DNA from: Phoronis australis
Taxonomy: Eukaryota > Animalia > Phoronida
Length of the DNA: 64,000 bases
Direction of reading: 5' to 3'
Assembly: GCA_002633005.1 (NCBI GenBank)
Contig: NMRA01000001.1
Span: 3,517,695 to 3,581,694, forward strand
Below, piece after piece: positions 3,589-48,500 of the stretch. The position numbers were made by a program, and so were the translations under genes. The notes beneath the pieces were generated by a model that was not told the DNA's origin, did not search any database, and was given only the letters and a program-made list of their open reading frames with translations. How positions within the stretch are numbered: position 1 is the first letter of the stretch; each line of letters starts with the position of its first letter.

Positions 3589-3662
3589 GTATGTTGTATG
3601 AGCAAGTGTGCTCAAGTTGTGGGATACTTGATACACTGATCACGTACTGACAGATGTTTTAA

Positions 3663-24849: not shown

Positions 24850-25695
24850 TCATTGCTTGCACGATTTTCTCCATATCTTCAGAAACAGTGGAAATTGTGC
24901 AGTAAGCTGAACAATGTCACAATCATCCTTTTTGATATTGAGAATACTTTCAACTTCCCTCTGTAACTTTTCGATTGTCATAAGTCCATCCGGGTTCAAT
25001 TTTGTATAATTCTGATATGCCGACGACGTACTGATAGCCTTCATAATGCCAGTGACAGACATTGTCTGCTCAATTTTCAGCGAACTGTCATACAAGACTG
25101 CACAACTATTTGGAAATTCAACGTCTTTGTAGCCATTGAGCCTGCTGAAAAACTTTTCAGCTATTTCTTTCGGAAATTCTTGTCTCCAAGTCTTTTGAAA
25201 TCGGCCAATGGCTTGCGAAAGTTGTTCCCCTTTAGAATGGTTCAGGAAGATGTACTCAGAACGGTGATAACCACAGAATGCTAAACAGCCAAATGGTTTC
25301 AAAATTCTGTCAGCTTCCTTCAGAAATGCCGCCATGTCAAACCAGTGCGCTGCTGTAAAGGCAGTCACTAGCTCAACGCTTTTGTCGTCTGCTTCTAGTT
25401 TCTCTGCGCTTCCAACTTGGAAGGTGATGTTGGGACAACAATGGTTCTTTTTAGCGTAGGCAACTTGGCTCTCACTGACGTCAGTAGCGATCACGTGCTT
25501 AAAATGTGGCGCCAGGGGTGCTGTTCCTTGTCCATTTCCGCATCCGACATCTAGTGCCAGCTCAAACGGAGAGTGCAGTTTAACAGATACGAAGTTAAGT
25601 ATTTCTTTGTAAACTATCGCAGGATACAGCGGACGAGAATTACTGTAGAGTGCAGCGTGCGTTTTTCCTGCAAACAGCTGCGATGCACTAGCCAT
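24850..25695 (-). CDS. Class I SAM-dependent methyltransferase (Methyltransf_11 type, DDB_G0268948-like), 281 aa, uninterrupted CDS
   Basis: N-terminal LFxxKxHAxxYxxxRPxYP; motif I ALDVGCGNGQGT; VIATDVSESQV; GSAEKL...SVELVTAFTAAHWFD; ILKPFGCLA. AATAAA on the minus strand at 24728-24733; possible 5' UTR acceptor ttcacag just before the ATG. Confidence 0.92.
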   Translation of the reverse strand: MASASQLFAGKTHAALYSNSRPLYPAIVYKEILNFVSVKLHSPFELALDVGCGNGQGTAPLAPHFKHVIATDVSESQVAYAKKNHCCPNITFQVGSAEKLEADDKSVELVTAFTAAHWFDMAAFLKEADRILKPFGCLAFCGYHRSEYIFLNHSKGEQLSQAIGRFQKTWRQEFPKEIAEKFFSRLNGYKDVEFPNSCAVLYDSSLKIEQTMSVTGIMKAISTSSAYQNYTKLNPDGLMTIEKLQREVESILNIKKDDCDIVQLTAQFPLFLKIWRKSCKQ

Positions 25696-25796
25696 TCTGT
25701 GAAGTTAACTTTTCACGCTCTAAAAAAGAAATGGTGTTCTAGAATCGAATCCTGGAAGGACCCATACGCGTAATGGAACGGGGGACGCCTCTTCAC

Positions 25797-26053
25797 CATG
25801 CGCGCACCCAGCCTAAAACATAGGGGGCTCGAATTGTTCGATATGCGGACTTTTTACTGAAAAAAATCAACGAGGACTAAAAAGGGGCCTCTAGGTTCAG
25901 GCCTGCCAATCGTGCATCCGCGCCGAATTCCTGTGGACTTTGCGGACTTTTGTCTCGTTTACTCGGACTTTTTGTTTCACTGAGGCGGACCTTTTCGCCC
26001 AATTCGCCAAATTGGGGGGTTCCTTCGAGCCCCCCCCCCCGGGTGCGCCCATG
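25797..26053 (+). mobile_element. ~250-bp MITE with 5-bp TSD, copy 1
   Basis: TTCAC|CATGCGCGCACCC...GGGTGCGCCCATG|TTCAC. Confidence 0.8.
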
Positions 26054-26327
26054 TTCACGTATTTGGCGCGAAGTCGTTCGAATTTGCTTTAAGCATTGCA
26101 TTTATTGTCTTTGCATCTTATCCAGCCTCTATTACAATTAGTTAATAACGGCTTCCCGTAATTTTACTAATTAGTCGTGCCTTACTCCGGAAGTGACGCT
26201 TAGGGGATTAAGAATTTCCCGCCATTTCGTTTTCACATAGTCTGACTGTGTGACCTGTCGAATCAGTCATTGTTTTACCTCGGTTGTGATGAGTTCGGTT
26301 GTCCTTTGCGTTTGTTTACGTGTCAAC

Positions 26328-27026
26328 ATGACGCACGGTTGCTGCGTACCGGGGTGTGCTCATTATGTTATCGTGCACTTGGTATGCCATTACACCACTT
26401 TCCGAAAGTTACACGCTCCGCGTACTTGGCCCGTTCGTGTGAAGAGTGCAGCGTTACCGTCCACGCAACGTACAAAGCAGTGGAGAATTACAGAGTGTGT
26501 GGCAAGCGTTTTCTGCCGTTGGATTGCGAAAGAGATATGTACGCGGAATTGATGAAGGTTCCTGCAAAACTACGCCTGAAGAAGGGTACCATACTGTCGC
26601 TGTTGATTCCCGGTAGTGCCCCGTCACCACCCCCGAGAAGTGCATTTTTGAAGCTAGTAGCCTCGCGAGCTGTGGCCTCTAAAGTGACTGGAGGCGCTTC
26701 ATCTACTGTCATCCGTGCCTCCGAATGCACCCAAGAGCGTGCAATTCCGGGAACAAGCAGTGATTCGCCCTGTGCTGGTGTCGTCTCCAGCCCAGAGCCT
26801 GTAAGCAGCCCTGCAGCGATGTTGAGTAGTCAATACAGGCCAAGTTCGACATCCAGTGGGGAGGACGTTCATCGTCTCGTGGTCAGGCCGGTGAGCCAAA
26901 CTTTGATAAGTTTATTGTGGACTTGAATAAAGTATTGGGGCTATTTAGAAGGTGCCAAGTTTGTGGCAAGGGAGTCACACGGCTGGATGTAAGCGGTTTG
27001 GGTGCTCAGGTCACCATCCAGTGGGA
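26328..27026 (+). pseudogene. THAP-domain Kolobok transposase, 5' part, frameshifted
   Basis: MTHGCCVPGC in one frame, then LHHFPK...RVCGKRFLPLDCERDMYAELM...RLKKGTILS (THAP), then KFIVDLNKVLGLFRRCQVCGK...GAQVTIQW, typical of the Cys-containing region before the Kolobok catalytic core. Confidence 0.75.
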
Positions 27027-27185
27027 ACAGCACGGGCATTACATTGAGGTTGGCATAACAGTGCACACCTTGTATTTTGAACCAAGACGTCCCACCACGT
27101 CTATTCTCAGTCTCTGCCTCAGCCCTCTCAACAGCTGTCTGTATTCTGCCTCACTATACTCGGTATCAAACATCATATCCATCCA
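27027..27185 (-). pseudogene. KolX (P2X7 C-terminal-like Cys-rich protein) 5' remnant
   Basis: Minus strand reads MFDTEYSEAEYRQL..., NRRGGTSW (alternate frame) and CTVMPTSM*CPCC, matching the recalled KolX pattern YMFEPEYxEEE...RxGxxxWCxCxxCxxMPTxxECxCC. Confidence 0.65.
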
Positions 27186-28043
27186 CTGCTACTACAAACT
27201 AAAAGATTCTGAAATCCAACGTAATTGAGTTATCTAACAACCTAGCTTGTCGTAGAATACTCGTCGATGGGAAATGGGCCGTGACGACAATTTTAGGGGA
27301 CCAGCACAAACCAACAGTAGAACAGATCCCCATAGTAACTCGAACGCACTAGAAACGAAACGGCGGGAAATTCTCAACCCCCTGAACGTCACTTCCGGTA
27401 GTGCACGACCAATAACATTAAGCAGAGCCGTAGTTAACTGAAGTATATATCTGCGATAATCCATAGAGGAACTGTATTTTTACTAAAAATGACACGAAAA
27501 AGGTTGCCTTGCACTTTAAGCTATGATCTTATTTGCAAGCGTATTTTAACATTTTAAATTATCGGTGGCTAATGTTCTCTCGTTGTTTCACTAACCGACT
27601 ATAAATAACATGACTTGACTTGACTTGTCTCTTATTTTCTGCAATTTACCTTATTTGACATGTGTTTATTCACACTATTGCTCAATGATATCAATTTGTC
27701 TCTTGCTGGATAATCTTTATGAAATGTAGAAATGCGCATGTAATCAGCTCGCAGCTTACTATAGTAAACAGATCTGATCAAATGGCCTGGTTCGTTTTTG
27801 GGTTGTTCTATATGTTAGGGGGGGGGGCTTCATAAAAAACATCAGGCCATTTAGGTCACACTCAACAGGTTTTGAATCACCGATGAATTTAGCCTGTTCT
27901 GATTGGAAGATGCTAGTTGTCCCGTTGACCAATTTGCTACCCAATCATGGCTTAAACCTGCCATATTTATTGCACACACGCCCGCTTGACATCTCTACGG
28001 TCCATGAAACAACAATGTCTGCCCCGGCCCCAGTGGCCGTCCA

Positions 28044-28270
28044 CATGCGTGCACCAAGGGGAGGGTGGGGGAGCTCGGTGGGCAAAAAGGTCCGCCTCAG
28101 AGAAAACAAGAAGTCCAAGACAATGAGACATAAGTTCACTTAAAAGGCGCGAATGCACAATTCATAGCTCTGAACGCGTTTTTTTTTAGTTCCCCGTATT
28201 TTTTGTTAGTAAAAGGTCCACATTGCCAAACATTCTACCCCCCCTATATTTTAGGCTGGATGCGCGCATG
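28044..28270 (-). mobile_element. Same MITE family, copy 2 (inverted)
   Basis: GTCCA|CATGCGTGCACC...GGATGCGCGCATG|GTCTA; its reverse complement shares cagcctaaaa and ctgaggcggacctttt with copy 1. Confidence 0.75.
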
Positions 28271-28310
28271 GTCTAATGGGAGTTCCCTGGGAGATTTGAC
28301 TCCTTCTCTA

Positions 28311-28380: not shown

Positions 28381-28575
28381 CATCAGTCATGATGGTGTCA
28401 GTCGTATGAAATCAGGGACAAGTTCTCATGCTCGTGTGCGGGTATTGTATATATAGATGTGTTTAATGTCCTCATGCTTGGTATTTCGTGGAGATGATAT
28501 AACCCGTTACGCACGAGAACGGCCATAGACCGGGAGAAGATCTTGCACAACAACAGGGCGGTCCTCGCTCGTATA

Positions 28576-29168
28576 CACGCAGGTATCATTCAGCAGTAGC
28601 ACGCGCTTTATCACTGGCTGATGTAACCTCGGCAGTCATTGGTTAGCTTCACAACAAAGAAAGAAAATGGCGGACCATGAAAGGTTTTTAGCTTTAATTG
28701 ACATGCAAGTAGCGGAGCAGCAACTATTTCGTTTCTGCAGTAGATGTTTAATAGCCGCGTGTTAGCTTGAAGCACATACATGTACACACACATCTGGCCG
28801 ATTTAACCAGTGTGTTATTCATACTATGAATATAGGACAGCAACGTAAACAAAAGCCCAGCGACATAGAAAGAGGTACTCCGAGAAGGCGCAACCAAAAT
28901 TTTCTGGGCCATTCACACTTCTTGAACACGAATTAAGCACCGGTTTGTATGTACAACCTAGGAAGCAATAAGTTCCTAAGTACAACAGACCAAAATTTTA
29001 CACAGGCTTAGTTCCGCTCCATCAATCATGCCAGTTTGTTTGCGTAAAGCGCTACCTGTTGAGAATTCGACAAGCCAATCAGAAACGCCGGTGTAAAAAG
29101 GCCCGAGGAAAATTAAATGATACCTGCGTGTAGTCTCTGCCACCTAGCGACACGCAGGGAACCAGCGA
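28576..29168 (+). mobile_element. ~0.6-kb TIR element, copy 1
   Basis: CACGCAGGTATCATT...AATGATACCTGCGTG inverted motif; body is the reverse complement of 29959-30546. Confidence 0.8.
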
Positions 29169-29299
29169 TCACGGCGGTCCCCATTGGGGATCATTTGAAT
29201 CTCCCGGGACAAACTATCAGAGACCTCAATATACTGGTAGTTAAAAGCAGGCTGCCGGACTTCCACTCGCGTAAAAAGTGCGAGCTGAAGTTCACATGA
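29169..29299 (+). pseudogene. Penelope-like element GIY-YIG endonuclease C-terminal remnant
   Basis: PIGDHLNLPGQTIRDLNILVVKSRLPDFHSRKKCELKF fits the PLE GIY-YIG pattern PVxxHFNxPxHxxxDLxVxxI...RxxxExxW/FI. Confidence 0.55.
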
Positions 29300-29660
29300 A
29301 CGTAGAGGTCAGAAATCAGTAACAAATAGGCTACAGTCTTGAGCGACACTTGGCAAACTGAAGAAAAGACGACGTCGGAGATGATGACGAAGATGACGAA
29401 TATTATGATGGTGGTGGCGATAATGAACAACATCACAACATTCATATGACGAACTTAGATGTCATAAATCAATAAGAAATACGCTACAGTCTAGTTCAAT
29501 AGAAGCTAAACCAACATCAAATGCAGCAAGAGCTGTCAACAAAGGAACAGCGCTATCAGAAAATCTCGAATAATTCAAAAAGTTAGACGTCGTAGCGAAA
29601 AATGGAAAATATCGTCTGAAAGCCCGTCCAAAACTTTATCTAGATTGATAGTGTGCTTTG

Positions 29661-29795
29661 CCGGTGACCCTTGGTTCATTATGATCCACTAGTGTAGTAC
29701 AGCACCTAATAATTTCAAACCAACACTACAGACTGGCATGAAATTATTAGGTGCTGTACTACACTACTGGATCATAATGAACCAAGGGTCACTGG
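29661..29795. repeat. Near-perfect hairpin, 57-bp arms, 21-nt loop
   Basis: ccggtgacccttggttcattatgatccactagtgtagtacagcacctaataatttca against tgaaattattaggtgctgtactacactactggatcataatgaaccaagggtcactgg; 2 mismatches. Confidence 0.92.
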
Positions 29796-29958
29796 AAAAG
29801 CCTGCTTTGGAGGAAATCCCCCAAAATGAGTTAAACGTTACTTACTTGGATTCACGTAATGAACAGCCGTTGAGCGAATATGCATGCGCTGGTCCAGTCA
29901 CTTGCCTAAGGACTGTTCTTATCAGTGGATGACCTACTTTACATCGCAGGTCTTATCC

Positions 29959-30546
29959 TCGCTGGTTCCTTGTGTGTCCGCTAAGTGGTAGTGAACACAT
30001 AGGTATCATTTGATTTTCCTCGGGAATTTTTTTACACCGGAGTTTTTGATTGGCTTATCGAATTCTCAACAGGTAGCGCTTTACGTAAACAAACTGGAAT
30101 GACTGATGGAGGAAGTGTAAATGTGGATATAGTTTGTGGTCTGTTATATAGACAGGTCAGTGCTTAATTCATGTTCAAGAAATGTGAATAAGAAAATTGC
30201 GGTTGTTCCTTTTCGTAGTGCATTTTTCTACTGTCGCTTACTTTTGTTTACGTTGCTGTCCTGTATTCACACGGTATGAATTACACAACGGTGAAATCGA
30301 CCAGATGTGTGCGCATCTCAGTGTACATGTATGTGCTTCAACCACGCTGCTATTAAATCGCGTTACTGCAGAAACGAAACATTTGCTGTTACGCCGCTGA
30401 CAAGGCTAAAAACCGTTCATAGTCCGCCATTTTCTTTCTTTGTTGTAAAGCTAACCAATGACTGCCGAGGTTATATCAACCAGCTGGTGATAAAACGTGT
30501 GCTACTGAATGATACCTGCGTGTTCAGACACCCAGGGAACCAGTGA
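29959..30546 (-). mobile_element. ~0.6-kb TIR element, copy 2 (inverted)
   Basis: Termini TCGCTGGTTCCTTGTGTGTC / GACACCCAGGGAACCAGTGA; shares aagctaaccaatgactgccgaggtta and gaattctcaacaggtagcgctttacg with copy 1 in opposite orientation. Confidence 0.8.
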
Positions 30547-30688: not shown

Positions 30689-32987
30689 ATATAAAGCTTA
30701 CGGCTTTGACAAACTGTGACGAATCACCCTAAGGCAGATGACATTGAAACGGTATATACTAAAATACTATCTCGCTTCTAATTAAATGTGAAGGCCAGTC
30801 GAAACATGGCTTGTGTTGACGGACTGTGAGCGTCACTGTCGCGTTAGATTGATTGATGTTACTTAAGTATAATTAAAATTCATAATGATGTTCTTGAAAA
30901 AAAACTCACACGTAAGGAATTAACATTTTTTTCTACTTCGTATTTATATCTGAAATTTATTCAGTTGGTCAGACGCTTTTTAATAGTAGACGAAGAAACT
31001 TTAAAAATTCTTCAATTTCGCAATTGCCAAACTGCACCTTTACGGTTTTCAAAGCCTAATTCCATTTTGTAAATGCTGAAATGTTAGTATTGTGTTGTTG
31101 GGTAATACACACTGCGAACCATGTTACTAACGAAGGAAAATTTTTCAACTTTAAATTTTGTTTAGAAGTTTTACAAAATAAAAGTCTATTTGTCCGACAT
31201 GCTTTGTTCTATACTGAAGATTTTTTGCCTAAACAATTGCCACTCGCATTCGCAGACATGTTCACACGTTTTCAAATTGAATAACTGTTATTTGTTATTA
31301 AAATAGTTCACTACTTTCAACTACAATAAAACTGTGTTGTCACTGACGGCATGTAACTATTATTCTCTTTGATGTTTCATTAAAAATATTCAAAAAGTTA
31401 AAAAATTAGAGAAGTATTATATTCCTGATTATGTCAAATAACATTTGCCCAAAATTACCACTATAAATCCAGCTGTCGAGAGCACAAAATTTGTTTTTTA
31501 AAGCTCATTACTTTACTTACCTAGTTAACCCTGGTGAGCTTTAGGAACTGAAAGACTTCCAACAATAGGTGGCACTAGTTGTCGCTTGCAAGCGTTATCT
31601 CTCATCCTGGCCTTTACAGATATTCCTCGACAAATGCAGATAGACCACGCCTACCTTAGTTACCGCTGCGAAGTTCCGCAAGTGCAAAGCCAATGTGGCA
31701 AGGGTCCTTTGCAAGCTCACTGCAAGAACACGTTCGTTGCGAAGTATTACAGGCGATAAACGCGATTTTTGATCACCATGCCCTCTGCTCACAATGTCAC
31801 TCGAGTTGAATACTTTGTTTCGTTTTGAGTACATCTGTGCTTGTATTTTCGAATCTCATAAAGGTATACCGTTAAAAATCATTGAGCAGCAATTGAATGA
31901 ATATTTCTTTCAAAAATTACGGAAAACGATAGATATAGGAGACAATTTAAAATACGTATACAGATCAGATTGTAGTGCGTGCGTGCGTGTATGCGTGCGT
32001 GTGTGGTACGTGAATTAGCGAAATTTTGAATCGTTTTGTTGTACTGTTTGACACTTTATAGTCTTTTGTGTGTCAAAAACATGAAGTTGTGTGGAATACA
32101 TTGATTTAGTCTGTTCTTGTGATTGCAGCAACCGCAAGCCTCAAAGGCATTTCTCAATAGATAGAGCAGTATACTGGTACATTTCTCAACATCGACCACG
32201 GTTATTGTCCAACCAATCGAAAGCTCCGATAAGAAGCCATGACATATAATCAATTCACTGTACTACCTCTCCTACCGTTGAGTGTAGTGCACGCTTGGTT
32301 TACTCGGTTTCTATTCTCGTATAAAAAACCTCCCCTAAAATTACCTAAAACATATTTTTGACTTATATATGACCCATCTTCGATTAACTGGGTTAAAAAA
32401 GTGATTAGGGGAGCAACATGTAAAAACAACAGTACTCTGCGCTTAAACGCGCAGAGTAATAACACATTGTGTCGTGCGTCAGAGGCAGAACAATGGCGAA
32501 TCCCTTGGCCCGACCAAATAATCACAATTATAAAAACAAACCAATTTCGGCAAAACTTCGAGACATTTAATCGTAACAATCAAATAATTTACCATTGAAT
32601 GTGAACATATGTTCTCTACAAAAACCTCAAAAACTTCTTAAGCTATACACTGTGCTCTTTATACAACAAATATTGTAATAATCTCATCTCAATAAGATTA
32701 AACCAAGCTAGCAAATGACCTTTGAACGTGCAACGAGGACTCCGTATTACCGTCAGACTGCCGTGCGTCTGCTCGTATCTGAAATAGCAGGTAGATACGC
32801 GAGACCGACAGACTTCTGTAGTCGCCGTCGTTACGTTTATGAATATGAAATATGAAGTGTCTTTAGTCTCGACGTCGAAGAGTTCTTACACCAGGTAAAG
32901 CGTTGTGATCTCAATGATCAAATCTTATAGCTACCACGACCCGGCTCACGACCTACGATGAAACGTACCACATTTTTTTCTCCATAC

Positions 32988-33395: not shown

Positions 33396-34485
33396 TCATG
33401 AGTTTTTAACGTAAACGGTATAATTTCTCCGAAGGCTTACTACCCAATATGAAACACATTTTAAAAATGATTACTCAATCACACAAAACATGTGTCAACA
33501 TTTCTATATCATGACAAATATATGTAAATCCTCCCATACATCAGACAGGACATTGGCAAATAACAATTAAAGGAATGTTAAAGGGAAATCGTTTGACAGA
33601 GTTGCCCAAGCATTCCAAAATGTGACTGCATCTTGCCAATCGCAGATAAACCTCAATGCCTTCTGATGATAGAAAACAATTGGTATCAAGACAAAGAAGA
33701 TTTTGTGACCTCTTTGATAAAGCAGCTTTAAACCCGTATTTTTGTCAAAAAATATAAGTTTAGATTTAGGCTACTTTCTGTTATAAAATTGGTCTCATCG
33801 TACAAAGTTTCGAAATTATCTCTGGCCTGTGGAAAAGCTGGCAGTTCGTTATTTTTCAAACCAAGGTCGTGTTTTTCAAAACAAGGTTTTATTTTTCCGG
33901 TAAGGCGTGACAAGAAATTCTATGAGGTTGGTTTGATGAGAAGTAACTACCGAACAATTCTTTGCAAATGCAACAACCACTTCTCATTTGAGAAGGAGCG
34001 AGTTGAGGCCGATAAGTGGACTAAATCAAAAGTTCGCTTCTTCAACGGAACGCGAGTTTATAGCCACTTTAAAGTTAATGCTGTAAATTTCATGTTTGTA
34101 CTGCTAGTGGGTCTTAAAATGCTTTCTTCAAAGTGAACCACAAAATTATACAACTCGGCAACCGTTTTGTTGATGAGCTTACGTGGCTACCCACAGCCTA
34201 AAGCGTCTATATATCTTAATATTTTGAGCTGTCGCTTTTTCATTTACATCCAAGAAAGTGACTCGCATTCCAGAATTATCGATTCTGTCGTCCTGTCGAT
34301 TGCGTATTCCAGGTAACAACTGTTGCGACATCTATCGGCATGTTGAAACGAAAAGGGCTCGAGCGGTGTGGAGAATTTCTTGTTCTACCTTCTTTGCAGG
34401 TAGAAATAAGCGTCTTAGCCGGTGTAAACTTCATAGATTACAGTTTTGAAGCATTGACCAAAGACAGAAAACAATCCAAACGAAG

Positions 34486-34836
34486 TCAATACAGCAGTCT
34501 CGCTGTTGAATAGTTTTTACACCACGCGAAATACTGAGTGTCCGTACAGCACGATCTGTACATTGATAGTTGATTGACAAATTTCGTGCACGCAAAACAC
34601 GTCCGATATCGGTCGTTTGTAGCCGGGTTATCACTGCGTTCACACTGCCCGAGAGAAGGCGGAACATGGCTGTGGTGTATTTCTCTCCGTCTCCTTTGGG
34701 ATATATTTATCAACTGTTGTCTATGTATGTTGATTTTGTATCTCCTGATAGACATCGTGGGAAGAGTCAGTGGTTTGCTTCTTGATAATAGTGCTAAATT
34801 CATGACACACAGGACGAAGAGCATCCGTACTTTCAT
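34486..34836 (-). CDS. Secreted Cys-rich prepro-peptide A (116 aa)
   Basis: Acceptor ttttatttacag directly before the ATG; signal-like MKVRMLFVLCVMNLALLSRS; RRRR furin site; mature EIHHSHVPPSLGQCERSDNPATNDRYRTCFACTKFVNQLSMYRSCCTDTQYFAWCKNYSTARLLY; paralog at 45230-45532. Confidence 0.82.
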   Translation of the reverse strand: MKVRMLFVLCVMNLALLSRSKPLTLPTMSIRRYKINIHRQQLINISQRRRREIHHSHVPPSLGQCERSDNPATNDRYRTCFACTKFVNQLSMYRSCCTDTQYFAWCKNYSTARLLY

Positions 34837-35172
34837 CTGTAAATAAAAGCATAAAATTAGGAAACACACAAAGCACACGGTTCTCGTATTTTCCACAGTG
34901 TGAACGTACTCACCGCAAACATATACGTGTTTGTTGTTCCAATGTCATGCGCAAAGTAAGTTGTTTAACTTACCCGTAAAATCGTGACATTCAACGGAAT
35001 ATTTAATGGAAACAACGATACAATATATGTGTAACATCCGACGTGGTCCATGAAGACCCGGGCCCCGGGGAATCTAACATCTGCTCACGAAGGCATGCTT
35101 CGAGTAAACTCACCACCGTCGGTGATTGCTAAGTTCGGACCTGAGCCCAGGTCTTTGCTTCGATACCTGAAA

Positions 35173-35315
35173 ATGATGACGGCGAAGAGGACAACGACGA
35201 TAATGATGATGATGGCGATGATGATGACGATTTTGATGAAGATAATGATGATGAAGATGATGAGGATGACTATGACAATGACGATGATAATGATGATGGT
35301 GATGATGATGCAATG
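35173..35315. repeat. (GAT)n-rich microsatellite
   Basis: Imperfect gatgatgat array; it generates the spurious poly-Met and poly-His ORFs. Confidence 0.9.
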
Positions 35316-38300
35316 AACATCGAACGTGATTAAGTCGACGTAGAGATTGATATTATTTTAATTTAAGATTTTTTATCAATGTAACATAAGTCTATGCTAG
35401 CTAACAGGAAAGCAGTGAGCTGCATGAATTTTTTGAAAGTGTACATTTTATCTCTAGTTGCTTACGGGAAGGTGAAGGTAAACTCTTATCTGAACGACTA
35501 AGGTGCAGAATTAAATGAAACATAACGTGACGTTAATTCATCCTTTAGAATTTAGAAAAGAAAGCAAAAATGCTTAAGCTTCAGTGAAATGTTTTTATTT
35601 TTTGACATTTTTTTGTATTTACGCATGCAAAATGCGCTTCTATTTTTTAGGCAACAAGTTAAAATAATGCAGAGTATTTCAACTTAATTTCAAACAATTA
35701 AAATTCAGCGTTTATGTTGATTTGAAGTTGGAAACGACACAAAAGCACAAAGAACATGTTGTTAAAGATGGCATAAAAGTCTCCTTTGAAAACCTACTTA
35801 ATTGGTACAGTGATACAGCTAATGAATTGCACGCAAGCAAACAGTCCTTACCCTTCTGAATTCAAATTCCACGGTCTTGAATTTAATTGTATCAAAATTC
35901 TTCAGAAATCATTTCAAATAAAACGTTTTGGTACACGATAAAACCTTCCTTTCTATTTCGCAGGCTTAGTTGGAATAGCACTTGGAATTCTTGATATAAT
36001 TTGTGCATCTAAGGTCTTTTTAAACGTGCACTTCTCTTTTGATCGACGCGTGTCAATAAAACAGACGACTTATTTTCTATTTGAATCTGTGGCAGACGAT
36101 CAGATCAAATTTACCCCTATCCTTCAGACGCCCGCTGTGAATATTTCGCCGATGAAGTCATCAGGATTTCACTGTCTTTACTTAGAAATTCTACGACCCT
36201 GTGGGTTTGTATAAACTTTCCACACACACCTATGGCGCATCTATGGCAGGCGGTATGCTAATCCAGCAATTCGAGCATTAACAATTGTAAGAACTTCGAG
36301 AATTTTAAAGTTATTTGACACAGAGATAGTTGAAGTGCGTTGAAGCGCGCTACTCTCAAAGTGACCGAAACAGGTAGATTAACCGCCATTAAAATTATGT
36401 CAAGCCAAATGCTCCAAATATTTCTCCCTAGCTTGTACCTCTGACTATAAAACGGGTTTGTGGTCCGAGGTTTTTGCTTATATGTTGCGCTCACAGCCGA
36501 TTTAGAATGAGCAAAGCACAACATCGTACTGAAATCATTCATTTGTGCAGCATTCCTGGAGATGCATGCAAGCAAAAGTTAATAACATCAATTAGCGTGT
36601 AGGTTGCATTTCACGATAGTCCCGCGACTTTTAAATTGAGCCCTCTTCACACTTCTGCGGTGGAATTACAATAGCTGGCTATTACGGTGTCTTGTAACAG
36701 TTTAGTTACTCATTGGAAAGCTACGCGCTCTACTGTTCATAGCGGCAATAACTGTACCAAAGTACTTGCTGCTCGTGCCGTTCTTCAGTAGTTCTGCTCT
36801 GTCTAAAACAACGTGCTATGGCGGCAGGCGATTGACATTAATTTGGCAACCGGGAGTTGGAGGGCCCAATTTACAAGAGCATGCCATTTGGTCGAAATAT
36901 AAAAATTGAGATCTAAAAGTGCAGATTGAACCGTTAACTTAGATTACCTGTCTTGGATTGTATACATGTGTATGATTAAAAAACGGTGTTTACATAAGTA
37001 AAATATTTGATAACCTAATACTTACAAATAATTTGTCTTTTTATTGTAAACAAATGTTGCAAATTAACAATAAAATCACGGACTCAGCTATTAAAATGGC
37101 ATTTTCGGCGACAAAAATGTTTTCCTGAGATCAGCTCCAGTATGAACTCGAAGCTGATGCACGCGCGTCGCAGTCAAATCTTCTGCTATCTTAATAAAAT
37201 CTGATGAAGCCATCAGCTTCGATTTTAACGAATCCCTTGCAGAGAACAGTGAGATTTGGCGATTTGTAATGAAATCACAAAACAAAACGGAGTTTGTTGT
37301 TTTATTGCCCTGGTCAAAACTAATAACTTCAAAACATCTATACCACGCAACATTCCTAAAATTGCGCTTTCGGACGTACGAACGACACTGTTCCTTTAAG
37401 GCACGTGATAAATAGTTATTGTTTCATATAAATATTAGTTCTGGCTTTTGTAAAACCTTTTACTCTTCTGCTTATGATAGATATAATAAAATACCTCAAA
37501 GTGACGAGAAACTGTCAACTTCGACTCATTAGTCTCAACCCGTCTTCAAGAGCGAGACTTGCGATGTAACAGTGAATCGGCTAACTGAAGCTGACTCGCT
37601 CGCTTGTGTACCAGTGAGAATCATTTAATTGATCTCGGAATTTTAAAAGCGCACAGGAGCCGTGAAGACACAATTGAAAGTCTAAAAAATACCCTGAGGG
37701 TAAATTTAGCTTAGGAGATCTAAGTGAGGCGAATAACTCGCGTGATTATAGTACATAAAGCAACAAACAAAACAGGTGAATTAAAAAATTTAAACACCTG
37801 TGTTAGACTACTCATACCTGAGGCTAGGGCAGTGTAAACGGTGACCACCACTATCTTAATAGCTTACCTTTGTCAAATCTCTCTGGAATGTCAGGCACGC
37901 GAAACTTTTGTGAATAAAACTAACTATTATGATTTCGTGAATTATGATATTCCGTTTGTCGATTCCGCCCCATACCAACAACGTACTATTTCTGTTTACG
38001 GTTTGCTGGTTAACTGTATCGAACCATATTCTGAAAACGCCATTCTTTCGCGGAATGCCTTCTTGAAGCAGGAAGTGCCAATCTCGAGAGACTGTTGTTT
38101 TATTTTAACATTCCCAAGCTGCTAACGAGATTGAAATTAATTGCATACCTATCTGAATATCTTACTCGATGCATCCTTTTGCTTGTCGATTTCTCCGTAC
38201 GTACATGAACCACAGAGAAAGCCCGCCGACTGTAGGTGTAGTTCAGAAAACCACGACTTGCTCAAAACTCGATTCCTCGTCGACCAGTGACACAGATCAT

Positions 38301-41300
38301 TACCGCATTAAATAACATAATTAGATCCGTGTCATATATCCTCGAATATTTTCCTTGACAAAAAGCGTTATTGACCATACGCCCTCGTTTAGTTGCAAAT
38401 GTGAACGATCGACTGAACACTCACCATTATCCGCCGTGTACCAATTGTGAGTAAGTTCGAACATCTAAAAGTAGGTTTTTATATACAAATATTAGCGTAG
38501 GCATTATTTCTATAAAAATGATTAATTTTTGGTTAATTACCACTTTCTGCTGTCTATTTCCTAATATGGATTGCTGCTGAGGTATTTGTACTATTTTTAA
38601 TTTTACATCATTCATCGTCGTACCGCACCTATGAATGTGAGTTTAACTCCATTTTGTCGCTAAACCTTTTAATGTTACTATGAGTGGTATTTAAATATAA
38701 TTATCACTAAATCGTCAGAACCCTACGACCTCTATATGTATGATGCAAACATACAAATGTCTACTTCCGAAGACTGCTGACGTGATGTGAGAATCAAAAC
38801 TAGAATTGTCTGAAGCTAAATTAACTTTCTATGACCGCCCGATTGAGCTCATACAGGCAAAAGCACATATCAGTTGTTATAAGTTTTAAATTTAAGTTTA
38901 AAATTTGACATTTTTGCAAACGCATTTTCTTGCTAATGTGTTTGAGGATTTTTACATTATGTCTTACCGGAACTTTCGGACAGTAGTCCCCACTGCTTTT
39001 ATGCAGAAAATGGTTCATTTTTTTACCTTGCTAGTACTCCAAATTGAAGCCCACGCGGACCATGGAAATATTTTTTAAAACTTTTTTATGCCATCCGAAC
39101 ATCAGTTGTCATTTTTAATTTATTACTTTACTTCTACCATAGTCTTATCTATCTGAATGGATGTATTTCTTAGTATGTTGTATTGTGTTATGTTGTACTG
39201 GTATTATTCGGTATTGTATTATTTGTTAAATAAATCAACCGTCATTCGATTGAAAAAGGGGACCTAGAAACGGAGAAATTATCATAAAATATGTCACGAG
39301 GAGAGTTTTTCTAGTCGCAAGTTTGGCTCAATGGCTTATAATTACAACTCAACGCGGATCTTAATCAACTAACTGCGAACAAGAATAGATATTCCGTTGT
39401 TTACATCGTTTTTAGAAACATACACTGAAAAACAGTGAGACAATCATCCCTGTTAGTCCAGCTGTTGTGTTTGCACACCTGTTATCGGAAGCTAGTCTTG
39501 GCAGCTTGCTCACGTTCACCTCATCCATCCTACTCGGGAAAACATCAGAGAACACCACACGCCGAGATTTAAACGCATCCACGCACGCCGGTAAGCGATT
39601 GTCTCTGAGCACCAATTGAACTTGCATGATTTCCCCTCATTTACAGAAATAAAACCACACTGAAATTAAACTACACTCGTCAGATTACCTTCGGTAAAAA
39701 GTGTCCCACTGTTCTTTTACAACCTACATGCTGTAGATGATAAATAACCTTTCCCTATTGGTGTTCAACACATACCACCTACGAGATTCATGTCACCACG
39801 ATGAACATTGAATCCCCGCGTAATAGAATTAGCACTGTCGAACTATGTCAAATTTTAGACGTGGCTCCGAATATACGTAGTTGCAAACATTCGAGAATGA
39901 AAAAACGGGACACCAGAACTGACAATGTGGGCATCTGGGTCTTTACCAAAACGCAGGGGTGAAATGTTCGCGACACGAAACACGCGAAAATGGGTAGAAA
40001 TACGGGTACCGTAACACCGGAAAACGCCCCGATAGAGTTTTTTATTCAAGCTGAAAAATAGTGCTTTGTCGCGTTGTAAATCAATTTTTGCCGAGTATCA
40101 CGAAGAGGAATATTTGGATGGTGTATAGCGGGACGCAGGACAAACTTTCAAATAGCGGTACACTCCGGGCCGCCAAAAGCGGGGCATTACCGACAAAGTT
40201 CAGAATTCAGACTCGTGGGCCTGTTTTGGGGGCCCTGTTTGCGGATAACTCAAGTAGTTAACGTACTCTCGATTTCCACGGTCGCTTGGTGCAGAATGCG
40301 TGTTTACGTTTTGACTTTGCATATGTGTTCGTATATCTTAAATACACGCCTGATACAAAGCAGTGACCCACTAGTACTGTATGACCGTGACATCTAAACG
40401 CACGAGTAGGTCGCTGGCGGATCTAGAGGATCGAGGGTGGACAAAAATTTTTCAGTGAACGGCAAACGTATTTTTGGTTGTATCCTGAGGGATGTACCCA
40501 TGATTATCTCTACAAAATCCACCTATGACATACAGACGTCATGTCCTGCAACATCTAACAAATACTCCGCTGATGACGTCCGTCGTGTGTATTGCCTGAT
40601 GCTTTTGTTTCTTGGGCTCAACGATGGATTTATAGAGGGCAACGGGGACAATACGGGACTGTTCATATTGGAGCTCTCTAGAGTAACGAAAGCACGAAAG
40701 TGACTTCCGATTGATCCCGACTGAGATTTGGTGAACAAAACAGAAATCCAATTACTATATAACGGTTCATGAATATAAAAGCAGAGGAATGATTTCCACT
40801 GAAAGTCCCTCCCATTTCTTGATTAGTTTAAGTTCACTAATTTATCTTAGCCTTTTTGACACCAGCTGGGATCGAAATTTCCACGCTTTATCAGCCACAG
40901 GCGCTGGCTTCGGTGGATACTTCATCGCAGTGGAAATGTATGGAACATGATGTTCTTGTTCATCCAATGATACTTGAAAATGTTTACTTTTTTCGTAAGG
41001 CATTAGTACATCCCACCGCACATCAGTGGAAATTTGCTGACATAGGTGGAAAGGTTTAGGTAGAAATCTCCCGTTCACCCCGTTACATGGTATCTATAGG
41101 CGGTGCTGAATGCTTGTCCACCAAAGACATGATCGTCGTCTGGCGGGTTAGAGAATTTCAATATGACCGTGGGCTATTTCAAATGTCAGCTATTGCCCCT
41201 GTGCTCCTTCAAAGTTACTCTAGAACATCTTGCCCCAGAGTAATTTGTTCTCGGTCAGTTCAGCGTCCACACACCATGTAGGCAATATTACATCGCCGTG

Positions 41301-41399
41301 TAGTCAGCCGGCCGAGGGTTTATGTGTTGTCTACAAAACATGCACTTTGTGACAACTATGATGGCGCAAAAATATTAGGTAGCATTGAACAGCCCAGAT

Positions 41400-42017
41400 C
41401 ACAGTGCCAAAAATTTAAATTCTAGGAGTAGGCCAGGTTTGGGCTTAGTTTTGAGGTAGGTGTTGCCTAGCTGGAGAGTCAGTGAATCTGGTTTGTTTGT
41501 ATTTGTGAAAATGTTGGGAACGAGAAAAAAAACTTGCTCAACTGTAGCTGCACTCTTCTTCAAGATAGCGGCCATCTGTGGCATTTGTGCATTACTGGGT
41601 AGCGGCTGGGGAATTAGCTGCAATTTCAGGTAGCCCTCAAACAAATCAGAATTGCCAAAAAATAGTTGGTTGACAGCACTTTTGGACCACATTTTTGGAA
41701 TCTGTAGGAAATTTGTTTTCAGAATATAATGTTGGCTTATGCACGCACGTGGTGCATTGACAAGAAAGTGATGGTTTTGGGGGGAAAAATTCCAATTTTG
41801 TGGGTTTTTTGATCCTTGTTTTTAGTCTACCTTGATTTCTAGTAGGAGTGAAAGGGCCAACATTACAAGAAACAATAAAGTTTGTGTGCTCATCTGTAAA
41901 GCTTTTGATGTGAAATTACTCAAAATATGTCAATCTTTACACACGGTTTTTAACAGGATGAAGAAAAGGTGACAAGTCCCTTGATGTGTGTTTTCCTAGT
42001 CAAAATTCAGCTCTGTG
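41400..42017. mobile_element. Possible Transib-like MITE (CAC termini), CpG-poor
   Basis: Left end CACAGTGCCAAAAATTTAAATTCTAGGA; right end (reverse complement) CACAGAGCTGAATTTTGACTAGGA; no matching TSD. Confidence 0.3.
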
Positions 42018-45000
42018 CCCCCTTAGACACCCCGAGAGTAACTGAGCACGCGCACAGCTGACAATTACTTCCGCCTTGTCTGCATACTTGCTTCCACGCC
42101 ACAACTTTCGCTACGACAAGTTACCCTAGAGCAAATTTCCCTTCATTGATGAGGTGGAATTAGTTGTCACACATGTGTTCAGTTGCTCCTGCGCAAGTAG
42201 CATCCACATTACTACTAAACCTAGTGACAACTTGTTCTAAGATAACACCCTATGTGGACAGCATCGCAAGGGGGCCCTTAATATGAGAGAATGTTTAATT
42301 TCATAGAAAAAGGAAAAGAGAATTAATTATTTCGTCATTGAGAGCCCATTCTAAAGTGGAGGGGACAGAACAGCAACTGATACCCACCAGAGAGTGGCCT
42401 GCCTTAGAGTGAAAGGATCATCAATTTCAAAAAAATAATAAAATAGCCGGAGTTGATGTATTAACCGGTGGCCGCCTTGATATAAAATGATTCACTTACT
42501 ATACTTTCAAAACACATGAGAATAACAATTCATTCCATTATGGAAGCTTTCCTAAACATGGCAGGATGTATTACTGAACAAACAGGAAAAGAGAAGCAGT
42601 TGATTCCACCATCTGCCCGCCCCCTCCCCCATAGGGAAGGAGTGAAAGGATATTAATTACAAAAACAGGGAACGAGTGACAATTGATTTAATAAGGAAGG
42701 AAAAAACCAGGAAAACGGTAACAGTCGATTCCATCATCGGCACCCCTTCGATACAATTAAATTGCAAAATGCCGCCGATACGCGCAACGGCACTTTTTAT
42801 GCATGCTCTAAAGTTTGGTCGAAATCCCGTTTGAAATGCAAAAGCAGTAACGGGCATTTCCGTACAGGGATGAGAGAAAATCAAGAACGAGTCAAAATTG
42901 CGGAAAATAACGGTCAAATCACAAAATGCAGACGGCAATCCCTACGGTACTTCGTAAGCGTAATTCAGTATTTTACAGTATGGTCGAAATCTCAGAAATG
43001 TAAGAGGAGTTGCCTACAGAAAGTATGGACGCACGGACAGACGGGCAAGTTGAGTCTACCATAACAATGACCCCGTCGCCTTCGGCGGAAGATAGTAAAC
43101 GAGGGGCAGTTGATATCGTGATATCGTAATATGAAATTAAGGATATACTGTGTTTAAAAATGCATAAACAAAGCGGAAACTAATACTGTCAAAGCCCTTC
43201 CCCCTTTACCCACAGCTTCGTTAATATAAGCCGGCACCATGATTCCACAAATTCAAATGAATAACATAAAGACACAGCTTTACATTCGCTAAAATCGTCT
43301 TTTTGAATAAATTTGAATAATTGATATTTAAGTAATACTTTGGAAATCTGCGCCTTTGTGGAAATAAGCGACACATGCATCGAAAACATTGCCCACTGAA
43401 CAACTCGAGCATAAATCCGGCACTGCGTGGAAAGCAATGCAATTGGAGCTTTTGACACATGTAAATTTTGTACAGCAAAACTAATTTATGTTTTTCCGTA
43501 ATATGCTTTATGCATGTGACACACGTCGAATATGGCGTTTCGTTCATTTAATTAGTGACATAAAATAAGAATGGATATAACTAATGAGATTTCAGTAATT
43601 GGGCACACTTGTTGATCGCCTTTGCGTGACGTCAATTGAAGGACCAAACATGGAGAGCTACTGAGCGAACGTGTGTAAAAACAACCTAGAACTTATTTAG
43701 CAACACAAACCAGTAATAATTTACTTGTTGGATCTATTTGAAATCATATAAGGACGTAAGAGTTACTTTTTCTAGCCTAATCACTGTGAAAGCAAAATGC
43801 TTGTTTAATCGAGACATTCTTCGGTGGTGAAGGTACGGTAATGCATCAAATATTGTAAACCATTGTTGATCCCAAAAATGTGGGAATACGGCCATGGAAT
43901 ACGTCACGGAATACGTCATGGAATATGCCAGAGTCAGTCCTGGGGCCGTTCCATTTTGTAGATGATGACGGCTACCAGTTTTGAACAGATTACATCAAGT
44001 GTTATGTCGTAATTTCATATGTGTCTACCTTTGTATCTTTAAGAGAAGTACAATAGACATGCTAAATTCGGATGCCTCGTGCTATATATCCCTTTGTAGC
44101 AAATGTTGAAACATGTTTATTTTTAAACCTTTTTATTTGATGTTAAAAGGCGAGCTACCAATCCTTTTTGTCAATTCTGACTATTGCAACTACCCTTATG
44201 GTCCAAATGCTGTCTGACAGTACCTCACGTGAAACTGATAAGCACTCTTATAACATACCGTTTGCGGTGCACTGTGGGCGCACATCAACGCTTTACGTTG
44301 CTCTGGTTTTGTTGTGAGTAGCGATTCGCAGGCTGGGCTGCATACATTTGCAGTGATGTAGTCCTAGAAAAAATAGTGGAGGGTGGGGGCATTGAACACC
44401 AGAGAAGCAATGGCGTAGATACTGTTACGCAGTACTCTACCGAGGTATGCCATTTTCGTATAAATGAAACTGGTCGTTAAATTTACGTTTATACCACAGT
44501 ATGGAACAAAATGAAATTGTGCTGATGGGGGCGTGCCCTGATTGCCTACGAAGTGAGGAGACGAAGTCACTGACCCCACGTGCTCCCTCGACTACCCAGC
44601 TGTTTTGTAATAGACTGAGAATCTTGCGATTGCGTTCTGTACACTTAGATATAAGTGCAAATTTGTATAAAACGTGGCACTTGTTTTCTGACAAAAATTC
44701 GTTGCTGAAAAGCCATCTGAACACTTTATACAAACAGTTTGTTCTGACTATCAAATAAAATAACAACAGTTTTAGAGCCAATTAATTTATTATGTAGATT
44801 GTTTCACAACTAAATGAATAAATTTAACTTAAATTAAATAACAGATTTGGGTTTGATTTTACCAATATATACATTAATACAATCTTCAATAAAAATACAA
44901 CGTTGGGAAAAATAAATCAGATCTTGAGCAAAAATAAATAAGAAGATACGAATCATATCTTTGTCATGATGACGTGGCAGATGAACAGTTGACTGAACAA

Positions 45001-45229
45001 TGATATGAATTAACAAACATGTAAAGTCTGAGAACATAAAAGAATATGCGGAATCCGGTCTTTTATGTTCGGTCATGGTTAGAAGACTTGTCAATAGAAG
45101 TCTCTCGTCGACGAATCTTCCTTTCCAACAGGAGCCGTCTAGCGCGCGCTTGTCACTTCCGGGGAGGTTTGAACAGATGATTCACTTTGCATCACTGAAT
45201 CACTACGCGACGAAGTCGCTGCGTTTTCC

Positions 45230-45532
45230 TCAAAAGGGTATGTTTATATTGCAGTATTGGTGCACTGTCGATTCTCGACAGCAGTCTGGGTAAACGTTCG
45301 ATTTGAAAAATTTGGCGCATCCAAAACAGACCCTATGTCTGTGTGTGTCCCCTTCGCAATGGTGCACACGTTCTACAAAACGGGCAACTCTATTAAAAAC
45401 ATTCCTTTGCTGTTGCGTTCTTGCAATAACCTTTTCAAGGGGACTATTTGTCCTTGCGGGTCTGCACAAGACCATAGCGATGAAAGTCAGCAAAACTAGT
45501 AGAAACAACAATTGTCTTGTCGCTTGGTCCAT
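45230..45532 (-). CDS. Secreted Cys-rich prepro-peptide B (100 aa)
   Basis: Acceptor tatttttcag two nt before the ATG; signal-like MDQATRQLLFLLVLLTFIAMVLC; RVAR site; mature FVERVHHCEGDTHRHRVCFGCAKFFKSNVYPDCCRESTVHQYCNINIPF; same six-Cys framework as peptide A. Confidence 0.82.
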   Translation of the reverse strand: MDQATRQLLFLLVLLTFIAMVLCRPARTNSPLEKVIARTQQQRNVFNRVARFVERVHHCEGDTHRHRVCFGCAKFFKSNVYPDCCRESTVHQYCNINIPF

Positions 45533-48500
45533 ATCTGAAAAATACAACGACAGAAAAGTTGAGGATGAAGCTTAGAGCAACCACAGAACCGTCGGGCTGA
45601 AATTACTAACAGTGCCATTGCATAATGCAAGTGCAGTTAAACTTGAGGTCAACACCGAGTTCCCTTCTTAGCCACCTACGTGTTCGTTGAGGACAGCCAC
45701 AGACTAACATGTACAGTGGACTATACTTATCGTTTAAGCGACACACTTCGTTATTGCAAATTCACTTCAAATTCATATAAGTGAATTTGGAAAATCAGTT
45801 GGAAATAATCCGTCTAAATATTATCCATTACAACCAAAAAATACCCTCTCAAGATTTTCGTCCCCAGCCGCCGGGTTTTAGTTCGAGGCTTTTACATGCA
45901 AATCAATCGAGATGGGCGGCGAATCTGCCAAAGGTGAGAAAGTAAGGCGATGATCAAAATAAAATTGATGACGTCGTGGGCTTTACCAGACCAAAGAACT
46001 CTAAATAAACGATTTTTCTAGCTAATATTATGAATATAAACCAAAACGAAAATGCCACGTAAACAGCCTAGCTGTACAGTCTTAGATGAAACACTTCGTT
46101 AATGGCAACAGCGGTCCCATTGGTTGATGTTCGTCAGTATGCCACAACTACCCTGCACTCCACTGGAGGAGGGGGGGGGGGGGGGCGNNNNNNNNNNNNN
46201 NNGGAGCTGGGGGGGGGGGGGGGGGGGGGGGCGACACACACAACACGCAACGGGGACACAGACCCCTGTTCATTTGCAAAAAAGCCCTCCTCGACCGAAA
46301 CTCATTTCAAATTTGTGTTAGCCCCCCCCCCTCTATTCAATGGAAAGTGCCCAAAGGTTGTCCCTTAGACCCCTGTCGCCTGGAATTTCGACAATTCAGC
46401 GTCGAGTATTTCCACCTACGCCTGTGGCTGCAACAATCAGACACTATGTTTAGACGAATAATTCTTGACAGATAATTTTAGAGCAGAAATTAGTGATCGA
46501 TATTTGCACTTCTAGTTTCAAGTCTGACGGAGATATTGTAGGTTGATAAAAATACACAACTCCACACGGAAGATTAGAATTACGATCGCAATAACTGCTC
46601 GCCGTCAACAGAGAGAAAATTGAGTGATGCTCAGTCAGTGATTTGACGACTTTTATGTTCTAATCACAACAAAACCTTAATTAGGCGTGTAACAGAAGTT
46701 ATTCCCCGATAGGTATTTACCACTTGTGTAATCCAAATAAACACGTGTCTGGAATGATAATGAGAACATTGTGCTTTAAAGATACTCTTTCCGATTGTTT
46801 TCAATTAAAACTTCATAATTTGACCAGCTGATGCTCTGTTAACAAGTTATCTAATGTTTTTAGAACAATAAAAATTAAATGTGGAATTTTCAAAATCATC
46901 ATTTTTCTGTCGGTGCATCACTGTACTTCACGTTCACTGAATTTTCTGTTAAAAGTAAGTACATGCAGAATTGTAATCAGCGAAATGTTCTTATTTTAGC
47001 GATCTTTTCGATTGAAGGAAATTTCTGTTTTCTAAAAAAGGAAAATAGACGAAAGGCTCTCTGTGTAACGTAAAAAACGATTCGCGCAAGTTCTGTTTTA
47101 AGAAGCTGTTTATCAAGTCACAGATATTTAATTCTGTAATAAAGGCCATAGTTCACCAGTTGTGCGCACGTGAAATCCTGAGGAAGGTATTTGGGTCAAG
47201 TTGCCAAAACACACTAACGTTTAACAAGCATGTGGATCTGGCTATTTAATAAAGTAGTAATTTCAATTATTTCTATTCGGTGTTCTTCCACCATTATGCA
47301 AAATATCTGGTTTTACATATTCCTCTCGCGTCCTCATCTTCAAATCGTTTTAAATATCCTCAACATGGAACGGAGTGCTGAGTTGGGATGTTTTCAAGAG
47401 TAATTTGATTATTTCGAAATAGCATGGACACAAGCCATTGACCACAGATTGAAAATAGATTTGCAATTCTAGAAATCTTTACTTCCCGCAGCACAAACGC
47501 TAAGTCAATTACATTTCAGCAACAGGTAGTCAGGCACAACGCGGTCGTGTATTTTAGATCACTAACGTCGACCCATAAAATTGGAGACAGAGCAATTTTC
47601 AGTGACTAAGAATCTGTAATTTATGAATTTGAAAAGTTACCGGAGATCTATTCGGCATTTAATCAGAACTCAAATTGAATCTGCTTGCAAGATTCTGTTG
47701 CCATTCAAATCATAGTTTAAAGATGGAAGTTCTCATCTAATTATTGAATTTGACAAAAACAAAGTGACCGAGATCGCGTCATTGCGTTTTGAAAATCTCA
47801 AGAGATAAGGCAAAGCATGCTTTTATTTCTTACTAGCAAATCAATATTTTAAATATCCCACCGACTTTGCTCCATATCAAAAGGCTTTCCGCGATCATTC
47901 CTACGGGAATCACAGAAGTAAATTTATGTCAATAAAAATCAGCTGAAAATGGGAAACAGCCACGTACAACTGAATGAAAGGTCTTCTTCGGCTGTGACCA
48001 TTACGCTTACGTAAACTGTCGTCGTCACGTGACACGAGGAAAAATAGACTGGATGTAATTCTCAGTCGACGAATGCCGCCCTCAATTAAAAATCGCATAC
48101 TTTAATGCGACGAATGACAAATTAATTATGCATAAGAAATCAATGTAGCCCTCCGCCTGACAAACCACAATTGTTTCTAATAATTATGAGATGTTGTTGT
48201 GGAGAATAAGTTGGTTATTGGTCTCTAGAGGCATTGGAATAGAAGATAATCACAGATGCTGTTGGATAAATGATCTTGCATTTTTTATAAGAATGAGCTT
48301 TGACGTAATCTTTTAGTTTTGTTCAAATTGCTAATGATTGTTCGATAAATGTTTCATGTACGCCCACTGTTTAAACACGAGATAGAAAACAATCGATGGG
48401 ATTTGCAAATAACGCGGACCACTTAATGTATCTATATTTCAGTAATGAATGAAACTCTGCTTGAGCAGCGCTGTCTATTGACGCAGAAAACAGTGAAGTT

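Follow-up and report, generated by a model that had tools for sequence, protein, structure and literature searches.

Two tandem six-cysteine prepropeptide genes, likely variants of the CHH/HAND superfamily

A stretch of 64,000 nucleotides from contig NMRA01000001.1 of the Phoronis australis assembly GCA_002633005.1 (positions 3,517,695 to 3,581,694; the window in the following) contains two small genes in tandem, each of which encodes a predicted prepropeptide with six cysteines in its mature part. The locus raises the question of which kind of peptide these genes specify, and whether the peptides belong to a known family. We favour the reading that the peptides are the animal's own signals, belong to the CHH superfamily, are cut by a furin-type convertase and contain three disulfides, and we assign to it a probability of about 55%. 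That the peptides carry the CHH/HAND fold by descent is in our judgement highly probable. The evidence comprises the paralogy of the two genes, their cysteine spacing, a structure model of one peptide and the ranking of protein clusters in the Atlas.

Paralogous genes with the layout of secreted precursors

Gene 1 consists of an uninterrupted coding sequence (CDS) for a 116-aa prepropeptide, called as an open reading frame (ORF1; 34486..34836) and covered by a few sense reads, and gene 2 of an uninterrupted CDS for a 100-aa prepropeptide (ORF2; 45230..45532), with sense reads mainly from one RNA sequencing run, X3. Both lie on the minus strand, as do all features of the two genes given below, and are separated by 10,394 bp, in agreement with an earlier note on this DNA that had placed two same-strand ORFs about 10.4 kb apart. 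As the note had claimed a hydrophobic signal peptide for each, it fits that both ORFs contain a single N-terminal hydrophobic stretch (maximal 11-residue Kyte-Doolittle value 2.65 for ORF1 and 3.31 for ORF2), with values of at most 0.95 after residue 30. Judged by hydropathy, the likely signal peptides span approximately residues 1-20 of gene 1 (34777..34836) and 1-23 of gene 2 (45464..45532), each with a predicted cut site. The following pro-region is basic, with a net charge of +8 (ORF1) and +6 (ORF2) over residues 23-51, and ends with R-x-x-R at residues 48-51, that is, with the putative furin-type site RRRR in gene 1 (34684..34695) and, in register with it, the minimal furin-type site RVAR in gene 2 (45380..45391). 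A sequence scan revealed no dibasic site in the whole of ORF2, and the predicted cleavage of ORF2 thus depends on the minimal RxxR alone. The predicted mature peptides comprise 65 aa with the pattern C-x14-C-x2-C-x12-CC-x8-C (gene 1; 34489..34683) and 49 aa with the pattern C-x9-C-x2-C-x11-CC-x8-C (gene 2; 45233..45379). The gaps between the six cysteines that follow R-x-x-R are therefore 14-2-12-0-8 and 9-2-11-0-8, and 10 and 6 residues, respectively, follow the last cysteine. The basic propeptide, both cleavage motifs, the mature lengths and the six cysteines are hence present as described before.

The strict six-cysteine pattern occurs twice in the six frames of the window, both times in ORF1 and ORF2, and in 0 of 100 order-3 Markov null windows; for a looser core pattern, two matches were attained in 1 of 100 such windows. 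In a BLASTP comparison of ORF1 with ORF2 the mature cores alone aligned (11 of 31 residues identical, pairwise E 8e-6), as expected from the previous claim that the mature parts are shared and the signal and pro regions unalignable, and the score was equalled in 1 of 5000 shuffles that kept the cysteine positions fixed. Moreover, the two CDSs are mutual best matches among approximately 390 blocks of the window, and when the DNA flanking the two loci was compared by blastn, the lowest E was 0.095. ORF1 and ORF2 are real paralogues. Since the flanks lack DNA similarity and each CDS is the best match of the other, the duplication is old, which had also been proposed earlier. Taken together, the six-cysteine frame, the core alignment and the precursor features support the description of the pair as secreted, processed, disulfide-rich paralogues, as far as the sequence can tell.

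A third copy may have left a decayed fragment at 32864..32905 on the minus strand, where a weak match to codons 101-114 of gene 1 was observed. Of its 14 residues, 10 are identical to those of gene 1, and different codons specify 6 of these 10; as many identities were reached in 0 of 40 null windows. The fragment might instead represent an alternative last exon in the manner of CHH genes; a clear pyrimidine tract in front of it is lacking. RNA reads were mapped only above position 33000, and the fragment lies outside this range.

Relation to the CHH/HAND superfamily

Searches with the sequences themselves gave little. Neither ORF1 nor ORF2, whole or as mature part, matched PF01147 in Pfam at E<=10, and PDB-sequence and word-index protein searches returned no match for either; the latter were limited to near lengths, with 3 candidates for ORF1, 1 for ORF2 and 3 for a three-sequence profile. 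The exact sequences of ORF1 and ORF2 are absent from a collection of 15 billion proteins, and none of 38 pattern matches in JGI metagenomes was confirmed. Matches to ribosomal L32 (E 0.013-0.58) were discarded, since they depend on a basic stretch plus a single C-x2-C, as were Pfam rows for EcsB and RIC1, which fall below the cut-off. A profile built from both mature parts, however, retrieved a single match among 1.84 billion representatives (E 4.4e-4). This sequence, P0001 from Logan, is an unnamed 91-aa precursor of the same layout as ORF1 and ORF2, with a signal, an RTRR site and the spacing 9-2-12-0-8; R-x-C-F-x-C and Y-x-x-CC are common to all three. Its similarity to each ORF extends beyond the cysteines (0 of 5000 shuffles as good). 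Like the two ORFs, P0001 has no PF01147 match at the threshold given above; its top PDB sequence match is 2M35 (E 0.055), with the cysteines in register. When P0001 was added to the profile, further searches recovered nothing more than P0001.

The Atlas clusters that come first for ORF1 also come first for ORF2 (0.91); they are unnamed and comprise mostly arthropod proteins of 102-105 aa without a Pfam assignment; their likeness to ORF1 and ORF2 is given by this score, the cysteine frame of the clusters not being displayed. The best named clusters for both ORFs are PF01147 Crust_neurohorm (0.84-0.87), namely 0.86 for a cluster in which the PF01147 share is 95%, 0.87 for one with 11% and 0.84 for one with 100%. 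Atlas matches below 0.9 serve as leads only. The earlier note had regarded the pair as a candidate uncharacterised family that it could not assign to a named one. This claim holds in part: it is in line with the missing Pfam, PDB-sequence and word-index matches, but the cysteine spacing, the predicted fold and the Atlas ranking converge on the CHH/HAND superfamily.

The closest cysteine frame is that of the centipede SLPTX3/HAND toxins. All three solved SLPTX3 peptides have the pattern C-x9-C-x2-C-x12-CC-x8-C and the disulfide pairs 1-5, 2-4 and 3-6 (PMC7232367). The group includes kappa-SLPTX3-Ssm1a (2M35), mu-SLPTX3-Ssm2a, which is identical to Ssm6a (2MUN, 2MZ4), and SSD609 (2MVT). Four of the five cysteine gaps are equal in ORF1, four of five in ORF2 and all five in P0001. 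The likeness comprises six cysteines with adjacent C4 and C5, a predicted three-helix core that lacks helix 5, and the top structural matches of the model. Differences are an identity of only 17-27% in the structural alignments and the longer first loop of peptide 1. In the PDB, ORF1, ORF2 and the profiles yielded no sequence match to SLPTX3, the best value being the E of 0.055 obtained via P0001. The peptides fit the SLPTX3 frame, but we do not file them as SLPTX3.

The fold was predicted with AlphaFold2 from residues 56-116 of gene 1 and a two-sequence alignment. The resulting model (pLDDT 73.9, pTM 0.56) consists of three helices at residues ~71-87, 92-98 and 100-114; the single-sequence model of gene 2 represents a failed fold (pLDDT 40). 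Foldseek returned three rows for the gene 1 model, none of them significant, and two of the three are SLPTX3 (2MUN, E 1.4; 2M35, E 7.8). In a VIA-align search of 48,161 chains, only 2M35 (Z 5.5, root-mean-square deviation (rmsd) 4.7, 51 aligned) and 2MZ4 (Z 5.5, rmsd 2.9, 45 aligned) reached Z>=5, followed by an unrelated chain (Z 4.8), with spider Ta1a at rank 10 and prawn MIH at rank 15 (Z 3.5). Z values of this size can come from a common helix arrangement. Weight is nevertheless given to the match because four of the top 15 chains belong to one small superfamily, that of CHH, and because the cysteine spacing agrees independently. For peptide 1 the model thus predicts the three-helix core of the CHH superfamily in the wide sense, including HAND, and by analogy with SLPTX3 the disulfides would be 1-5, 2-4 and 3-6 and a fifth helix would be lacking.

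With the ecdysozoan CHH/ITP/MIH hormones of types I-IV (PF01147; 1J0T) the peptides have in common a six-cysteine mature part behind a pro-region in type I layout, C-x2-C-x12-C, a last gap of x8, a helical core and the best named Atlas clusters. In contrast, C4 and C5 are adjacent in both peptides, while the canonical C4-x3-C5 is represented by Cys39 and Cys43 of Sco-CHH-L (PMC8541221). The missing PF01147 match further sets the peptides, as well as P0001, apart. Helix 5 is likewise not found, since the chains continue for just 10 and 6 residues beyond the last cysteine and the gene 1 model contains three helices. Moreover, gene 2 would be cut at RxxR, in contrast to the plain dibasic site of CHH/ITP/MIH, and alternative last exons appear to be absent here. 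In cysteine register with the buried aromatics Phe44 and Phe49 of Sco-CHH-L (C5+1 and C6-3), peptide 1 has Phe and peptide 2 His at C6-3, and neither is aromatic at C5+1. CHH/ITP genes contain coding introns after the signal region and after approximately residue 40 of the mature peptide (PMC7560641, PMC10501145).

The lophotrochozoan CHH DREPs (Koch et al. 2023, PMC10501145) likewise represent a CHH-like helical fold outside Ecdysozoa that was found via structure rather than sequence, and their C-x2-C followed by a Tyr-Arg-Cys-like stretch resembles our peptides by eye. However, DREPs have four cysteines, a peptide placed directly behind the signal and a phase-2 intron, unlike the six cysteines, the pro-region of ~30 residues and the intronless coding sequence observed here, and we therefore rejected membership. 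CHH-superfamily peptides outside Ecdysozoa are described as mostly having four cysteines (PMC13311285), and one ITP-like sequence with six, from a mollusc, appears in a figure of PMC12611267. In the literature searched, we found no six-cysteine, adjacent-CC CHH-like peptide outside arthropods, although Undheim et al. 2015 (Structure) may hold non-venom CC-type sequences. The main text of the phoronid, brachiopod and nemertean neuropeptide survey PMC8557429 mentions neither CHH nor ITP, and exact-string tests with the ORF motifs revealed no matching precursor in the displayed passages of its supplement. Comparison by eye with supplementary sequences of PMC6158917 and PMC8557429 showed that the cysteine frames of CCRFamide and CLCCY differ. 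Eclosion hormone (PF04736) was discarded as well, with no Pfam match and Atlas clusters at rank 17-18 (0.77-0.79). The A-chain frame of insulin-like peptides is CC-x3-C-x8-C. As the frame here is CC-x8-C and no Pfam match was obtained, these peptides were also rejected. Taken together, the two peptides are likely a variant of the CHH/HAND superfamily, being neither members proper of CHH/ITP/MIH or the DREPs nor a new family.

Transcription, gene ends and neighbourhood

RNA was represented by one contig set and three stranded raw runs, X1, X2 and X3 (18-19% of each). The strand was fixed by junction reads, 61 of 61 of which are GT..AG and have their first mate on the minus strand; X3 contains no junction read and was assumed to follow the same protocol. 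The mean sense depth of gene 1 over 34401-34867 was 0.27 (X1), 0.05 (X2) and 0 (X3), with weak sense depth downstream of it at 33467-34400, part of which may be repeat-derived. At gene 2, X3 yielded sense reads exclusively (depth 3.5), of which 13, 7, 5 and 2 were observed at 45028, 45112, 45120 and 45512; the signal extends to bin 44675-45141 and is 0 in 44208-44674. In X1 and X2, an antisense depth of ~22 was observed over the gene 2 region versus a sense depth of 1.4 and 0.4, respectively. The evidence for sense transcription is thus weak at gene 2 and minimal at gene 1.

The antisense signal corresponds to a spliced RNA on the plus strand, one exon of which, delimited by junction reads and with an approximate 5′ end, overlaps the 3′ end of gene 2 (44851..45237). 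From a donor after 45237 it is spliced to 54157, 58198 or 63481, and all 61 junction reads (GT..AG) lie on one strand. The longest ATG frame in the spliced forms comprises 57-68 codons, no frame exceeds 68 codons, and a 72-aa frame of the unspliced RNA has no Pfam match. The RNA is thus alternatively spliced and apparently non-coding, strong in X1 and X2 and absent from X3, in which sense reads alone occur. This reciprocity across the three runs may reflect regulation or a difference between tissues.

A splice-acceptor-like pyrimidine tract with CAG lies immediately 5′ of the ATG of gene 1 (0 nt; 34837..34858) and 2 nt 5′ of that of gene 2 (45535..45556). Among the 48 N-free ORFs of at least 70 aa, a tract with CAG at most 3 nt before the ATG was found for exactly two, ORF1 and ORF2. 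Each gene therefore likely comprises a single coding exon that is preceded by a non-coding one. For gene 1 the acceptor implies an upstream exon of the 5′ untranslated region (5′-UTR); a GAT/GAC-type trinucleotide repeat (35187-35314) lies 350 bp upstream of gene 1, within its putative first intron. No sense splice junction is listed for either gene in the mapped reads. Candidate poly(A) signals AATAAA are located at 33888..33893 (gene 1) and 44786..44791 (gene 2).

Multi-copy repeats occupy 37253-37334 and 40673-41900 between the two genes, and numerous divergent reads as well as loose ends were observed there. Elsewhere in the window, the 3′ exons of a talin gene are located on the plus strand (559-5947; exons ~600-5950), with mir-190 between exons at 3070-3145; the range of mir-190 fits a bilaterian. 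A single-exon class I methyltransferase of 281 aa is encoded at 24850-25695 on the minus strand (Methyltransf_11, E 5e-21), and its exact sequence is absent from the 15-billion protein collection. Nested inverted repeats (25795-26001/28079-28272 and 26140-26232/27353-27439) enclose overlapping short frames (26289-26926) that appear THAP-like by eye, with Znf_SCAND3 (E 0.057) as the only Pfam row, and 25795-28272 is likely a decayed DNA transposon. Long inverted repeats in the regions 28575-30523 (28575-29168/29959-30523 and 29655-29801) and 7343-7625 are likely foldback elements or miniature inverted-repeat transposable elements. In addition, a 99-aa frame on the minus strand (16637-16936) resembles a BTB-type domain exon by eye and has no Pfam match.

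Endogenous signals, toxins or convergence

In the mechanism that we favour, removal of the signal peptide and furin-type cleavage after residue 51 would release peptides of 65 and 49 residues, which would form the disulfides 1-5, 2-4 and 3-6 on the predicted three-helix CHH/HAND fold and act as hormones or local signals of the animal itself. A signal is preferred over a venom component because the two copies are deeply diverged and do not form a young array, because RNA is low in all three runs and because a conserved counterpart exists elsewhere. By family analogy, the receptor might be a membrane guanylate cyclase of the Gyc76C/Gyc32E type with cyclic GMP as output, and the peptides might serve ion, water or metabolic balance; this guanylate-cyclase route is a possibility that we rate at clearly less than even odds. 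The Drosophila ITP receptor is the membrane guanylate cyclase Gyc76C, receptor guanylate cyclases include two protostome-only clades with Gyc32E as an orphan, and ITP is reported to be absent from deuterostomes, all according to PMC12611267; for Bombyx ITP, G-protein-coupled receptors are reported (PMC13311285).

Several observations weigh against this interpretation. No sequence search with ORF1, ORF2 or the profiles (Pfam, PDB) attains any CHH/HAND sequence. The model was built from two sequences, that of ORF2 failed, Foldseek gave E values above 1, and the Z of 5.5 lies below the caution level of the tool for small helical proteins. The named Atlas matches remain below 0.9, and the recognition score of ORF1 (2268) is below 2300. 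In contrast to the coding introns of CHH/ITP and mollusc CHH genes, both CDSs are intronless. Finally, the closest structures are toxins, previous work connects the loss of helix 5 with toxin function (PMC8541221, PMC7560641), and the low RNA of the three runs would also be compatible with expression in a small gland.

Some of these points would suit toxins for defence or predation, CHH-derived, weaponised independently and convergent with SLPTX3, which would be released from skin or glands to block Kv/Nav channels of other animals. SLPTX3 provides the nearest spacing and structures; with tails of just 10 and 6 residues helix 5 is missing, the loss of which is proposed as a key weaponisation step (PMC7560641). 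CHH-like toxins, moreover, arose many times, and in cone-snail tandem genes the entire CDS occupies the second exon, preceded by one of 5′-UTR (PMC13542836), a layout as found here. Against this, the 64 kb contain only two intact copies, which are deeply diverged and form no young array, RNA is very low in X1, X2 and X3, and P0001 together with the unnamed arthropod look-alike clusters, whose hosts or sequences are not displayed, suggests a wider conserved family. We therefore consider toxins unlikely. Slightly less likely still is an unrelated secreted three-helix family outside CHH/HAND that acquired a similar cysteine frame by convergence, which corresponds to the unassigned family of the earlier note. 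It would explain why no sequence search connects the peptides significantly with CHH or SLPTX3 (E 0.055 at best, obtained through P0001), as well as the modest Z of 5.5, the lack of a common coding intron and the missing Pfam assignment of the best Atlas clusters. However, the Atlas features, Foldseek and VIA-align on the model and phmmer of P0001 all put the CHH superfamily first among named matches, that superfamily provides four of the top 15 among 48,161 chains, and four of five cysteine gaps of ORF1 and of ORF2 equal those of SLPTX3.

The RNA data could also be read as those of silent or decaying relic genes at a locus that expresses mainly antisense non-coding RNA. The antisense excess over gene 2 in X1 and X2 (~22 versus 1.4 and 0.4), the few reads at gene 1, the lack of a listed sense junction at either gene and the possible decayed fragment 1.6 kb past gene 1 agree with such a state. 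Yet both genes have kept their frame, six cysteines, acceptor, signal and cut site despite the lost similarity of their flanks, and X3 contains sense reads only (13, 7, 5 and 2 at four positions), which renders decay improbable.

If the peptides are endogenous CHH-superfamily signals, they may belong to an ancient protostome branch with adjacent C4 and C5 and without helix 5, an idea that we advance more tentatively than the guanylate-cyclase route. Its members would be ordinary hormones of lophotrochozoans and arthropods, including the two genes, P0001 and the unnamed arthropod clusters of 102-105 aa; SLPTX3 would have been recruited ready-made from it, the loss of helix 5 would not be the weaponising step, and the peptides would be ligands of an orphan protostome guanylate cyclase, for example one from the Gyc32E clade. 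So far, the compact HAND form without helix 5 is treated as a venom innovation (PMC8541221, PMC7560641). The weight of the finding hinges on the phylum of the host and on the fold, which is predicted here. A six-cysteine pair in the SLPTX3 frame in a likely lophotrochozoan would point either to a missed hormone branch behind the centipede toxins or to a striking convergence, and the predicted peptides of 49 and 65 residues are concrete candidates for deorphanising protostome membrane guanylate cyclases.

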